Shown here piece by piece: positions 10,604 to 24,017 of a stretch of 24,017 bases of DNA. The DNA comes from a virus. Every line of letters starts with the position of its first letter. Positions within the stretch are counted from its first letter, which is position 1. The notes below the pieces were generated by a model. That model saw nothing but the letters and a program-made list of their open reading frames with translations, made no database searches and was not told the DNA's origin. The stretch lies in UHGV virus genome UHGV-0096010, one strand, 5' to 3'. The translations under genes were made by a program, and so were the position numbers.

Positions 10604-10649
10604 TGGTGCCGATAATAGGAGTCGAACCTACGACCTTCGCATTACGAAT
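10604..10649 (-). tRNA. 3-prime 46-nt fragment of a tRNA-Thr(CGU)-like gene (anticodon-loop through CCA); integrase attachment-site type repeat, not a complete tRNA
   Basis: minus-strand reading ATTCGTAATGCGAAGGTCGTAGGTTCGACTCCTATTATCGGCACCA shows a T-arm (GTAGG/TTCGACT/CCTAT), acceptor 3-prime strand, discriminator and CCA; sequence upstream of it cannot form the D-arm or 5-prime acceptor strand; matches from memory the 3-prime half of enterobacterial thrW. Confidence 0.6.
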
Positions 10650-11048
10650 TATAAGAATCCGCTTCTAATTCAAAGCATTACCCCATCAACACTGCGCTCA
10701 CACGTCCCACCACATCAAAACATGTAAAGCCTTGCAAGTCATTGCGAGGCCTTATGTGTCTCAGTTTTGTCCCACCTTGTATTACGACTTGCATAGCCAA
10801 TGAAGATAAATGTGACGACAAACGGCGCAGCAGTCTTCTTTTCCTTCATACTTTCCCCACCCAGCATGCATACCTTCTACCATAACTGTAGTGAATGTCT
10901 GTTATGAGCGAAAAGCGGACAGGAACATTCTGGTTAATAGATATCAATGCTAACAAAAAAGCTCCCGATGGAGATTTTGAAACCGCTTCCACATAATGAG
11001 ATAAAAGGATTTATTTCTGGTCATGCCCACACATTGACCACGTCGAAG

Positions 11049-11077
11049 TAAGTAGCTCCGCTTCGCGGAGTTACTTA
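11049..11077. other. strong palindromic hairpin (13-bp stem, 3-nt loop) downstream of the SIR2-like gene
   Basis: GTAAGTAGCTCCGC / TTC / GCGGAGTTACTTA; no flanking U-tract on either strand, so not a canonical intrinsic terminator. Confidence 0.35.
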
Positions 11078-11175
11078 AGATAATTTCTATGTAGTTCCAT
11101 GCTATGATTTAATTTTCAAGTTACAAAATCTAAATCTACAAATGTCCATTTGGGTGTAAAATTACACAATCCTAT

Positions 11176-11970
11176 CTATACTAATACGAAATTCTTCAAA
11201 AACTCTTCCAAAGACTCGCCTGGATTATCGTTTTCTGATGAAATCATGCCTATTCTCCACTGTTCCAATATTTCCTCTTGAATTGGGTTTGGTCGTGGTA
11301 AGAAAATATAAGACTTTGGCTGTGCTTCTTCTAACTTTTGCTCTTTCCAAAGCTTGGACAATTTATAAAATAGTAGTCTGATATTAATATCTGACAGACT
11401 ATACCCAATAAAAAGAACTGATTTCCCGAGAACATCAGATCTAAACTTTATATCCAATGGAGTTTCAAACTCTAACCGTTGAAAGTAACTTGTTTCATCT
11501 AATACAATTGAACTATCGTCATCAAAGTCTCCATGAAACTTGATTATTTGCGTCTTATTATTATCTATTTTTGCAATATCAGAAACTGATGATATTTTTA
11601 TATACTCTTTACCATAGTTTGATAAGGCAGTTTCAATCCATCGGTCGTAATTTGTAGTATATATAATAGGGAAATTAGCTTTAGCTATGTACTCGTGAAC
11701 TTTAGACTTATTGATATCTATATCGCTAGAGTGCCACATTCTATCCATCCAGCTTCTAAGAGGCCCTATCTTGCCTTTTTTCAACTTGTAATACTCAGCT
11801 AACTCTAGTGCACTACCGAATGTACGATATATATCTGGGTCATAACCTAACTCAGTTGCAATGTGATCAACCAATTGACTCCATGATGGCAAACCTAAGT
11901 TCATTGACACACCAGCACCAACAAAAAGGATAACATTTCCTTTTTTATAATCAGCAAGTAATTGCTCCAT
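11176..11970 (-). CDS. SIR2-like (SIR2_2-type) protein, predicted NAD+-consuming effector (KomC-like)
   Basis: 264 aa; motifs [48 protein letters not shown] characteristic of defence-associated SIR2 domains; GGAGG SD; ATG overlaps upstream stop by 1 nt (TAATG); AT-rich. Confidence 0.75.
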
Positions 11971-12524
11971 TATTTTCCTCCCTCTAATAGATATTTTTTA
12001 AATTTATCGAAAGCTTTTTTCCTCATAGATATTTCATTTTTCCTATCCCCCATCTCAGCAAAAGTCTCACTTTCGCCATCAGGAATAAATATACAATCCC
12101 ATTGAAAATCTCGAGGGCCTTTTGGCACAGGAGATATCGTACCTTGAGTTTCACCTTCGAAAATATAGATTTTCATCGAATCACAATAGCCGATTATTGT
12201 TTTAGCAACTAAACGAGGGTTTTCACTTGTTCCTAATAATTGTGAAAATTTATCAGCTTGAAGCTTATCCCAAAATATTTGCGTTAAGCCACCCGGGAAA
12301 CCATTGAGGCTTTCTATATATAGTCCAGTATGTTCGACAAAGACCGGTCTTCCAACTAATTTAAATGCTTTTAATAATTTATCTTTAATTAACGCATGGA
12401 CATTTTCAGTTTGAATTTCATCTATAGAGTGTTCAGATGCTAATACAACTACTCCTGTACCTGATAGAATTTCATTTATTTCTTTAATTTTATGTCTATT
12501 TCTGGTTATAAATCGAATGTTCAT
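11970..12524 (-). CDS. HAM1/ITPase-family (non-canonical purine NTP pyrophosphatase-like) protein, possibly a divergent nucleotide-binding subunit (KomB-like)
   Basis: 184 aa; N-terminal T-x-N-x-x-K-x-x-E ([11 protein letters not shown]), [22 protein letters not shown] and C-terminal SMRKKA align by eye with RdgB/ITPA motifs, with several canonical residues replaced; AAGGTG SD; ATGA overlap with upstream gene. Confidence 0.7.
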
Positions 12525-13501
12525 TTCACACCTTTAAGAAAGCTATATCGCTTTTGAGTTTCATACATATTATCCATGACTATAAAATTCTTGGTCTCTT
12601 GCATAAATGCGACATAATCTTCGCTCAAGCTTGATCTGTGAATAGCTGGATTATCTGAGCAAATCACAAACGGAATATTATGGTTAATCATTTCGCCAAC
12701 TGGATGAGGATCGACATCAGAGACTGCACCTGTCAAACGATTACTAATAGGACAAACCTCAATGCAAATGTCCAGTTCTCTAATCAAATCCATTATCTCC
12801 GGAGATCTTATAACAGCAGTACCATGTCCGATACGATCAGCTCCATAACTAATTATGGCATTCCTTATGTTATCAGCATTTCCAGTCTCACCCGCATGAA
12901 TTGTTATGCCTAGTCCATATTTGTCTTTAGCACTTCTAAATAAACTTGCAGTCTCAGGTGGTGGTGTTATATCTTCATTACCAGCCAAGTCCAAACCAAT
13001 CACCCCTGCTGGACATCCTAGACTTTTGTAAGCACCAAGAAGAGAACGAAGATGTTCGGGAGCATATTCACCACGCGTAATAGTTAGAATAAGCCCGGCT
13101 TGAATGTTGAATTTTTTAGAAAAAAAGTCAATATCATCTAAAACCCACTTCAATGCTTCGGAAACAGAAATGTTATTAAGGAGTGCTATGTATATAATGC
13201 TATTTCTTAATTCAACAAACTTAATATTCTCAGCAATTAGATTTGAAAATGCACTCTCAATCATAATATATAAATCAAAGCGACTTGCAGGAATGAGCCT
13301 TAAAAACTGCCATGGCTTTAAATAATCCACTAGTGATCTTGCTGGGTGTGTTACATTCAAGTCAGTATCTATATTAAAGTGTTCAGGCATTTCAATAATA
13401 TTTTTTTCTAGGACCCCCCTAATTACTTGAGTGCTTACCAATCCATTCAAATGAACATGTAATTCTCCTTTATCCATCATTCGAGCTTCGTAAAGATCCA
13501 T
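12521..13501 (-). CDS. adenosine/AMP-deaminase-family metallo-hydrolase (KomA-like)
   Basis: motifs in canonical order: HVHLNG (His-x-His zinc site), GLDLAG, HAGE, RIGHG, SDNP; preferred start ATG at 13501 puts the HxH pair at residues 15/17 as in characterised adenosine deaminases; ORF-track start 13549 is an alternative. Confidence 0.75.
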
Positions 13502-22721: not shown

Positions 22722-22785
22722 GGCTGCATTCCTCTTTGACAGTGAATAAAACCGCCAACCAGCAAATCATTTCAGGTGATGGGAT

Positions 22786-23115
22786 TTATTCCCCGCCCTT
22801 CATTCCGCCGATACGGTTTTCGATAAACCCAGTAACTTTGTTGCGGACTTTATCCGCTCCCATAAATCCGATTGAGGCGCCCACGAACGTTACTGCGTTG
22901 GACGGAAGCCCCAGATATTCCAGCGAACCGGCCACAGCAAGCGTGACAATCCCACATACCAGCGATCCGGTGGCGGTTTTAAGCAAAGACTGCCCATCGT
23001 AAAGGCTCATTAGCGCCGAAATACTCAGCGCCGCACCAGCCGCAAACAGTGTCGGCAGATAAGTAGCGATCCATTTCATTGTTTGTTCGAGTAATCCCGG
23101 TGGTGTGTCGTGCAT
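22786..23115 (-). CDS. holin
   Basis: small protein with hydrophobic TM segments (LPTLFAAGAALSISALM, LVCGIVTLAVAGSL) and C-terminal GFMGADKVRNKVTGFIENRIGG motif; second in-frame ATG at 23079; ORF-track start 23235 likely over-extended. Confidence 0.6.
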   Translation of the reverse strand: MHDTPPGLLEQTMKWIATYLPTLFAAGAALSISALMSLYDGQSLLKTATGSLVCGIVTLAVAGSLEYLGLPSNAVTFVGASIGFMGADKVRNKVTGFIENRIGGMKGGE

Positions 23116-23125
23116 ACCCTCCCCC

Positions 23126-23326
23126 TTAATCCCATAGCTGCACGGTTTCCCGCTGGGCTGGCGGCTGGATCTCTGGCAGGTAGACAATCTGCCCGGCCTG
23201 CAACTCAGTGGCGGCGGAAATGCCCTTATTGGCATCGATCACCGCCTCGGTAACGCCTGCTGTTCTGCCGTAATAGCGCCAGCAAAGCAGGTCGATCGTG
23301 TCGTTTTGCTGCGCCTGAACGTTCAT
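23126..23326 (-). CDS. X: tail protein X, P2 gpX-like (LysM-like)
   Basis: 66 aa; NDTIDLLCWRYYGRT...GQIVYLPE matches the LysM-like pattern of P2 X; synteny L-X-holin. Confidence 0.8.
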   Translation of the reverse strand: MNVQAQQNDTIDLLCWRYYGRTAGVTEAVIDANKGISAATELQAGQIVYLPEIQPPAQRETVQLWD

Positions 23327-23814
23327 TACACCAACTCCGCCAGGCCCCGGCTTTCGTCCTGGATATCACGGATTGACCAGCGCACATCCCGCCACAGCGT
23401 ATCGATCTGCGTGCTCAATGCCGCCGCGTGGTCTTCGCCTTTACTGGTGGTGTCAATATCGCGGTAGCCTTCAATCAACAGCGCCTTAGTGAGTGAATAC
23501 ACGGCGTTTTTATAGCGCCATACCTTCACGGAAGTGCCATTCACCGGACTGGCCGGAATTTCTGCCAATGACTCATAGCCCGCATCAATCTGCACCTGGC
23601 GCCACAGGAAAAGCTGATCATTAACATGGGCCACCGCTTCCACCGTTCGCGACATCAGGCGATCGGTTGTCACCTGCCCATCAAGACGCATCGCGCGGCG
23701 TAGTTCAGCCAGCGAAATGACCGGCCAGAATGGCAGGCTTTCAACCTTCGCGCCGCCATCATCAGGCACTGGATCGGATGGTGGCCGTACTGGCTCAGTG
23801 GCTACCAGACTCAT
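23326..23814 (-). CDS. L: head completion/stabilisation protein, P2 gpL-like
   Basis: preferred ATG at 23814 (MSLVATEP...) with GGAG SD; the ORF-track GTG extension to 23910 is low-complexity and probably non-coding; assignment by synteny. Confidence 0.55.
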   Translation of the reverse strand: MSLVATEPVRPPSDPVPDDGGAKVESLPFWPVISLAELRRAMRLDGQVTTDRLMSRTVEAVAHVNDQLFLWRQVQIDAGYESLAEIPASPVNGTSVKVWRYKNAVYSLTKALLIEGYRDIDTTSKGEDHAAALSTQIDTLWRDVRWSIRDIQDESRGLAELV

Positions 23815-23916
23815 GATCTCTACTCCGTATAAGTCAGGCGGTGGACGGCAGGACGAAGACGCGGCGTTGCCTGTTTTCGCCTGCCGTGCCGCCTGGGTGC
23901 GCGGGGGCACGTTCGG

Positions 23917-24017
23917 TTATGACGCCGCCTTCTGGCGGGCTGTCGTGGTTCTTTTCTTCGCTGCCGGCTTGCTTTTAGCGGCGGGCTTTTTGGTTTCCCG
24001 CTTCGCTTTTGGCTGGG
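23917..24017 (-). CDS. 3-prime end of an upstream gene truncated by the window edge, possibly terminase small subunit (gpM-like); lysine-rich C-terminal tail
   Basis: open frame reading ...QPKAKRETKKPAAKSKPAAKKRTTTARQKAAS then stop at 23917-23919; no start within window; frame choice uncertain. Confidence 0.3.
   Translation of the reverse strand, partial: QPKAKRETKKPAAKSKPAAKKRTTTARQKAAS

Follow-up and report, generated by a model that had tools for sequence, protein, structure and literature searches.

The virus genome UHGV-0096010 is a 24,017-nucleotide (nt) stretch of Escherichia coli DNA at the thrW (tRNA-Thr) integration site, beside proA. We analyzed its full length, which we call the window. 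We found that positions 10604-24017 are probably the junction of two unrelated myovirus prophages: the att-distal end of an SfV-type prophage carrying the defence system Kongming, and the late genes of a P2-type prophage, joined inside a tail fibre assembly gene (tfa) in what would be a real recombinant, with a remnant of the P2-type prophage likelier than its complete insertion. We take the P2-type/SfV-type join for ordinary mosaicism of prophages, or possibly for a product of assembly; it is neither a new cargo site nor a new architecture. An earlier note on this DNA, made from the letters alone, had placed the defence cargo in the Z/fun position of a P2-like prophage.

An SfV-type prophage end at thrW

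The left part of the element is bounded by a thrW fragment and holds the cargo.

10604-10649, minus strand: 3' fragment of tRNA-Thr (thrW), 46 nt, a copy of the att core between an island (island A, 1-10600) and a second element
10650-10891: att-proximal arm of the SfV-type prophage end, 95-97% identical to the stretch by the LysR fragment/att in LD26-1 and ECOR29
10892-14405: Kongming and TetR cassette, 3.5 kb, with sharp ends, a mobile cargo unit

The att-type tRNA fragment reported in the earlier note proved to be an exact thrW 3' piece ending the element: positions 10604-10649 match the tRNA-Thr annotated in CFSAN029787 at 46 of 46 nt of its 3' end, and ARAGORN found no complete tRNA in the window. 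In CFSAN029787 an island flanked by a tyrosine integrase on one side and the intact tRNA-Thr on the other is 99.7% identical to positions 1-10649. Since island A ends in just the last 46 nt of the tRNA, a second element lies in tandem at the same att, and positions 10604-24017 are this second element.

From 16412 leftwards both flanks of the cargo are SfV-type at 99%. Overall, positions 10620-16412, up to and including the 3' two-thirds of tfa, are 99.3-99.9% identical to SfV-family distal ends at thrW. The individual comparisons extend somewhat beyond these limits, with 99.3% identity to locus L010 (an SRR15731747 contig) over 10620-16663, 99.6% to L011 (a JGI metagenome contig) over 4574-16663 and 99.94% to L012 (an ENA contig) over 4577-16270. 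In L010 the genes for a tape measure, a DNA-circulation protein, a Mu gp45-48-type baseplate, a short collar fibre and Tfa are followed by the invertase gene pinE, a TetR gene and the three-gene Kongming operon, and the tail module is 97% identical to those of SfV, SfII and SfI. The exact 184-aa pinE protein is found in SRR15731747 beside Kongming and SfV-type tail genes.

SfV itself carries gtrV-gtrB-gtrA between tfa and int/attP. In LD26-1 and ECOR29, where thrW is occupied by SfV-type prophages, the cargo between pinE and att is a restriction-modification system with a GIY-YIG gene and a hypothetical gene, respectively; in L010-L012 it is Kongming and TetR, as in the window. On this comparison of gene orders, the cargo slot of the window is identified as the att-distal moron position of an SfV-type prophage, equivalent to the gtrABV position. 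The window thus shares with the SfV family (SfV, SfII, SfI and SfIV) the att core at the 3' end of thrW and the placing of cargo between the fibre-assembly gene and att. Unlike SfV, it carries Kongming with TetR, pinE and an invertible fibre tip rather than gtr genes, and in its contig the fibre constant part, the baseplate and everything beyond are replaced by P2-type genes. Accordingly, a Mu-type baseplate (gp45-48), a DNA circulation protein and an SfV-type fibre constant part are all missing from the window, where P2-type V, W, J, I and the N-terminus of H stand instead.

18AR0366, the closest complete genome and the sole one with the order att-Kongming-pinE, has that stretch in common with the window; a degraded SfV-type remnant follows it there. 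It also has an extra 3.1 kb between att and komC (L001 15306-18455) that has no counterpart in the window. Bounded by a 24-bp repeat (window 10896-10919), this insert encodes a beta-flower protein and also has an Abi-like gene and the frameshifted gene of a tyrosine recombinase.

A P2-type late block of Senquatrovirus-like descent

The right part of the element, 16469-24017, holds a different set of genes.

23917-24017, minus strand: last ~100 nt of gene M (terminase small subunit); the alignment reaches L016 position 3844, within M 3096-3944
23326-23814, minus strand: head completion gene L (Pfam Phage_GPL)
23126-23326, minus strand: gene X (Pfam Phage_tail_X)
22786-23115, minus strand: lambda-S-type holin (Pfam)
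22242-22721, minus strand: CHAP endolysin (Pfam)
21623-22140, minus strand: DUF2514 i-spanin pseudogene (Pfam), with an 8-bp deletion at 22133 and a 5-bp deletion at 21924
21670-21909, minus strand: o-spanin open reading frame (ORF) inside the i-spanin gene, with an LVGC lipobox (from the translation)
21129-21623, minus strand: tail completion gene R (Pfam P2_Phage_GpR)
20524-21168, minus strand: tail completion gene S (Pfam Phage_tail_S)
20505-20522: TGT-N12-ACA element, a candidate Ogr-type late promoter site in the 157-bp gap between S and V
19737-20366, minus strand: spike gene V (Pfam)
19390-19740, minus strand: W/gp25 (Pfam), shortened in frame by a private deletion of 12 bp at 19584
18482-19393, minus strand: gene J (Pfam Baseplate_J)
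17875-18489, minus strand: gene I (Pfam Tail_P2_I)
16584-17885, minus strand: tail fibre gene H (Pfam Phage_tail_fib and Collar), with a constant part at 17077-17885 and an exchangeable tip at 16584-17050

Homologues of L, X, R, S, V, W, J, I, H and the fibre-assembly gene were found by Pfam in collinear order on the minus strand from 23814 to 15976. The earlier statement that the gene order from L to Tfa follows P2 therefore stands for this list; it does not extend to the lysis genes, which belong to non-P2 families and include a disrupted i-spanin. The block resembles P2 in these homologues, the last being of the G type, in their order, and in having TGT-N12-ACA upstream of V, at a position that we take to correspond to the P2 PV promoter. 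The motif occurs six times in the whole window against 5.6 expected, which is chance frequency. The block differs from P2 in that its holin, endolysin and spanin are from other families, not the P2 Y/K/lysABC types, and in its invertible fibre segment with an invertase; it has no FI, hence no slot from G to FI.

Positions 16469-24017 differ from the P2-type loci L016, L018, L019 and L021 by two to five substitutions depending on the locus, plus three short deletions (~99.9% identity). The exact 433-aa H protein is found in 21 contigs, and all other listed places reaching past H have P2-type neighbours. On a 4.9-Mb chromosome with the exact H, the order is terminase-O-N-M-L-X-holin-endolysin-spanin-R-S-V-W-J-I-H-Tfa; beyond Tfa lie an alternative tfa and tip plus an invertase, next U-T-E'-E-FII-FI in the other orientation, and lastly D, ogr and the host gene fieF. 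Annotated complete genomes give the same layout for this P2-type lineage, and all three P2-type relatives whose flanks were inspected are integrated beside fieF. Judging from the gene order of these relatives, fibre genes of this lineage are normally adjoined by the invertase and an inverted tail block rather than by the Z/fun-FI arrangement of P2.

Among named phages, the nearest are SEN4 and SEN5, Salmonella phages of the genus Senquatrovirus (Peduoviridae), at 95.7% nt identity over 87% of 17080-24017. They share with the window the order L-X-holin-endolysin-Rz-like spanin-R-S-V-W-J-I-H-Tfa. What then follows in SEN4/SEN5 and in the E. coli prophages at fieF is U-T-E-FII-FI in the reverse orientation, with D, ogr and int behind it, whereas the window has the SfV-type end instead. 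The window also differs from its Senquatrovirus relatives in the frameshifted i-spanin and in a W gene lacking four codons. We assign the right block to a Senquatrovirus-like P2-type lineage on the basis of these similarities.

The absence of sheath, tube and tape-measure genes noted earlier was borne out. A tblastn search with FI, FII, E, T, U, D, ogr, N and O of L016, an intact relative at 99.9% identity, gave no match in window 1-24017; the invertase was the sole member of the query set to match. Island A, held open in the earlier note as a left-hand block that might prove to be the P2-type tail genes, is ruled out as their site because none of its proteins (1-10600) is of a P2 family. Base composition also differs, with 56-59% GC in the P2-type block and 34-36% in the operon region.

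The block carries damage of its own. Four near-identical relatives encode an intact i-spanin of 176 aa; here the gene is destroyed by an 8-bp deletion after codon 3 and a 5-bp deletion in mid-gene, while in W 12 bp were lost between GATA repeats at 19584, removing four codons. These three private deletions may reflect decay; consensus errors at the low coverage are a less likely cause.

At 24017, the right edge of the window, the source contig stops (ENA ERZ1303392 NODE_69; 116,658 bp, SPAdes, coverage 5.7). The capsid and packaging genes expected upstream of L (Q, P, O, N and M) are represented by just the ~100 nt of M before this contig end. At this break in M we found no insertion sequence (IS) end and no lineage-level identity or repeat boundary.

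The join inside tfa

The two parts meet in the gene that follows H.

15976-16584, minus strand: chimeric tfa (Caudo_TAP, 202 aa), with the N-terminal 46 aa from the P2-type parent and the remainder from the SfV-type parent
16413-16480: join of the two prophage lineages, from base-by-base comparison

The comparison resolves three zones. From 15901 to 16412 there are two mismatches to L010/L011, and mismatches are dense beyond. Positions 16413-16468 form a 56-bp allele that is unlike either parent and is nevertheless found in other tfa genes. From 16469 the P2-type loci L016, L018, L019 and L021 are identical to the window at the join. One crossover between parents of the L010 and L016 types was considered and is insufficient, as the 56-bp patch matches neither. 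The alleles of the window are non-P2-type up to 16468 and P2-type from 16481; when the common SfV-type tfa alleles (L010, L040-L044) are taken as the left parent, the parents share 12 identical bases at the switch.

A 60-mer across the junction had no match in the JGI metagenomes and one match in IMG/VR, which carries the cassette allele only, without the join. A predicted fibre combining the SfV-type constant part with the window tip occurs in five other samples, not in that of the window; from this it follows only that a long repeat could be shared.

The invertible fibre-tip cassette

The join lies within a cassette of fibre tips, tfa genes and invertase.

14577-15131, minus strand: pinE-type serine DNA invertase (Pfam Resolvase and HTH_7)
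15158-15832, plus strand: alternative glycine-rich fibre tip in silent orientation (Pfam Gly_rich_2; PHROG tail families)
15187-15212: invertase-proximal crossover site (pix/gix-like), with the variant core AAACC-AA-CGTTT
17051-17076: crossover site within H, with the core AAACC-NN-GGTTT

The two 26-bp crossover sites are inverted relative to each other, match at 18 of 26 positions and bound the segment 15187-17076; we compared them with what we take to be the gix/hix consensus. Within the segment the H tip and tfa are on one strand and the glycine-rich tip on the other. Inversion would fuse the silent glycine-rich tip to H, and in the related prophage CX12 this tip is in the expressed orientation. 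The earlier note had listed the invertase among the genes standing where P2 has its sheath and tube genes; it belongs to the fibre module and is not cargo. The organization resembles the Gin/Cin/Pin segments (Mu G, P1 C, e14 P) in its adjacent serine invertase, its inverted 26-bp sites of which one is in the fibre gene, and its two alternative tips with chaperones in opposite orientations. It differs from them in being a mosaic cassette whose halves come from different phage lineages, and inversion of the segment here is predicted from the sequence.

The cassette is widely shared, and its limits coincide with the crossover sites. Identity to 18AR0366 and ECOR29 ends exactly at 15212, and matches to the fibre tip in other phage lineages all end at 17068-17083, the crossover site in H. 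The tip is about 98% identical in SfV-type, P2-type and a third type of myovirus prophage, and 16469-17071 is 100% identical in some SfV-type contigs (L032, L033) and in P2-type L016. For comparison, the invertase of the P2-type parent is just 85.6% identical to pinE. We also observed that the tip together with the 5' end of tfa (16380-17076) is 98-100% identical across lineages (L026, L027, L029, L032, L033). Prophages of the third type that share the tip are inserted in pflD and rlmC.

How the join may have arisen

We propose that an SfV-family prophage (Mu-type tail, HK97-type head) would have integrated at thrW, tandem to the island at 1-10600, and that the left part of the element is its att-distal end. 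Outward from the att core this end would comprise the slot with Kongming and TetR, pinE and the pinE-proximal half of the invertible fibre-tip segment. The right part would be M'-L-X-lysis-R-S-V-W-J-I-H of a Senquatrovirus-like prophage, from a lineage normally found beside fieF. The crossover would have taken place in tfa, within the fibre-tip/tfa cassette that SfV-type, P2-type and other myoviruses have in common at 85-100% identity, and would have left the sheath, tube, tape-measure, D and ogr genes of the P2-type parent on its far side. The tail genes would then be absent because the crossover in tfa parted them from the block; the cargo did not displace them. The earlier note had offered a deletion remnant or tail genes lying elsewhere, which was the right pair of options. 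The P2-type block is most likely a defective remnant, judging from the lack of ogr in cis, the frameshifted i-spanin and the small deletion in W. Three indels against three substitutions over 7.5 kb suggest relaxed selection.

Several observations weigh against a real recombination event. The exact chimeric Tfa is known from one contig among about 15 billion proteins, none of the 5426 complete E. coli genomes has the join, and neither of two predicted reciprocal Tfa chimeras was found in the protein collection, the parent allele being uncertain. The contig, at a coverage of 5.7, includes just 7.5 kb of the P2-type block before it stops. If the strain has an L032/L033-like SfV-type prophage as well as a P2-type prophage, 16469-17071 would be an exact repeat of about 600 bp that an assembler could mis-cross. 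In addition, both prophages normally would have tfa in the same chromosomal orientation, judging from the maps of relatives and of K-12, so that an exchange between resident prophages would delete about 0.8 Mb with essential genes. A real event would thus more likely have needed a free extrachromosomal P2-type genome recombining into a resident SfV-type prophage; what was left of the P2-type genome may or may not have been lost afterwards.

The singleton join missing from complete genomes, the low-coverage SPAdes node that stops 7.5 kb past it and the stretch that is identical in SfV-type and P2-type contexts would all be expected from an assembly chimera, in which an ordinary SfV-type thrW prophage with Kongming and a separate complete P2-type prophage of the source strain or metagenome were mis-joined via the shared cassette, so that no gene would really be absent. 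Related assemblies moreover break in tfa (L012 at 16270, L031 at 16372), which marks tfa as a repeat. We regard such a mis-join as a real possibility, though clearly the less probable one. With the common SfV-type alleles the exact overlap at the switch is only 12 nt, below the usual k and too short for a k-mer graph join, which argues for a real event if the SfV-type parent had the common tfa allele (L040-L044). The P2-type block also appears to be single copy, because the contig crosses it unbroken, and its three private deletions, two of them frameshifting the i-spanin, fit a decaying remnant better than an intact prophage.

As a sub-case of a real recombination event, a whole circular P2-type genome may have been inserted by homology into the SfV-type tfa, independently of an integrase. 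The tail genes, D and ogr would then lie about 25-30 kb further right, by a reciprocal tfa chimera. Such an insertion would, from the gene orders, give the observed joint without loss of chromosomal genes; the block extends at least into M at the contig end, and three substitutions relative to free-standing relatives would make the event recent. We nevertheless consider it unlikely: the predicted reciprocal Tfa chimeras were missing from the protein collection (with the stated uncertainty of the parent allele), a frameshifted i-spanin is at odds with an intact, recently active phage, and direct repeats around a 33-kb insert would be unstable. It is similarly doubtful that integrase-independent capture of circular P2-type genomes makes fibre cassettes landing pads that fuse myoviruses and pass defence cargo between lineages. 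The interpretation of the earlier note, that a P2-like prophage at a tRNA gained defence cargo in its Z/fun hotspot and then lost its tail genes by internal deletion, is very improbable. Z/fun, defined as accessory genes between G and FI of a P2-type prophage, is a recognised P2 defence locus (PMC13586616), and the cargo does come after Tfa. Against this, the window has no FI, both flanks of the cargo are an SfV-type end at 99% identity and not P2-type, the three inspected P2-type relatives sit at fieF and not at thrW, and their invertase is the different, 85.6% identical allele; in SA31-1, the one other genome inspected for context, the cassette lies in a lambdoid prophage. A real recombinant that left a defective P2-type remnant remains our preferred explanation.

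The Kongming cassette

The cargo consists of an operon of three genes and a divergent regulator gene.

11176-11970, minus strand: komC, SIR2 NADase effector (Pfam SIR2_2, 1.5e-26; PADLOC ThsA-type SIR2, 8.9e-32)
11970-12524, minus strand: komB, HAM1-like dITP sensor (Pfam Ham1p_like, 1.8e-39)
12521-13501, minus strand: komA, adenosine (dAMP/dADP) deaminase, 326 aa (Pfam A_deaminase, 8.9e-47)
13803-14249, plus strand: TetR/AcrR-family regulator gene, divergent from komABC (Pfam TetR_N, 7.9e-7)

The AT-rich three-gene operon was rightly described as defence-like. Its order of A_deaminase, Ham1p_like and SIR2_2, in adjacent or overlapping ORFs from 13501 to 11176, is that of the Kongming definition. 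KomA has His15 and His17 at the published positions, counting from the 326-aa start; KomB keeps N9, K12 and E15 and has His65 in place of the catalytic Asp, the signature of the defensive HAM1 clade; and KomC has His146 and Asp194 at the published positions. By these features the operon is identified as Kongming (KomABC), a published defence system, and no difference from Kongming of E. coli NCTC13216 was seen at the level of domains, order and published residue positions. PADLOC 2023 left the operon unnamed, giving domain matches to SIR2/ThsA and CARF-ADA only. According to the Kongming papers, which concern the NCTC13216 system, a phage dNMP kinase, KomA and host NDK make dITP; the KomB-KomC filament, once activated by dITP, depletes NAD+, and phages with a dNMP kinase gene are the ones protected against.

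At 99% identity or more, the cassette is present in 81 of 5426 complete E. coli genomes, with one copy each. TetR is annotated beside the operon in all 29 full-length cassette copies listed from these genomes, and the divergent TetR may regulate komABC; the term "TetR" is absent from the main text of the Kongming preprint. Whether in the SfV-type end or, near rspB/ynfA, in a lambdoid prophage (L003 15001-18513), the cassette has the same sharp ends, and no recombinase gene lies inside it. LD26-1 represents the empty site, in which the flanks (window ~10872 and ~14399) adjoin.

A side observation concerns SfV orf30 (L039 8201-8737), which is annotated as a deoxyribonucleoside 5'-monophosphate phosphatase. 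The Kongming preprint describes this enzyme class (T5 Dmp) as blocking Kongming through dAMP degradation. An SfV-type prophage with Kongming might also bear a Kongming inhibitor in the form of an orf30-type phosphatase.

Implications for annotation

For annotation, it would be wrong to record this DNA as a P2-type prophage with defence cargo at Z/fun, and hotspot surveys anchored on P2 core genes could misplace Kongming here. Kongming moves as a fixed 3.5-kb unit together with TetR and occupies at least two temperate-phage slots, the SfV-type end and a lambdoid prophage. The cassette of fibre tip, tfa and invertase is exchanged at up to 100% nt identity among SfV-type, P2-type and a third myovirus lineage, and with breakpoints on the crossover site it is a likely spot both for prophage recombination and for contig mis-joins. 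The families, the recombination-prone cassette, the defence system and the type of slot are all known, so that the sole unusual point is a join seen once; current understanding of these families is unchanged.

Island A

The sequence to the left of the tandem element (1-10600) is a separate thrW island whose integrase gene lies immediately outside the left edge of the window. Its products include a Dit-like tail protein (50-727), a protein of 613 aa that has a tape-measure-like PHROG match, one of 343 aa with a weak major-head match and a replication-initiator-like protein; most of its genes have no family. The island looks like a phage satellite or a small defective siphovirus-type element. 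Among complete E. coli genomes, 133 contain the island at 80% or more of its length; the Dit-like protein occurs in 1790 blocks listed in the contig collection.

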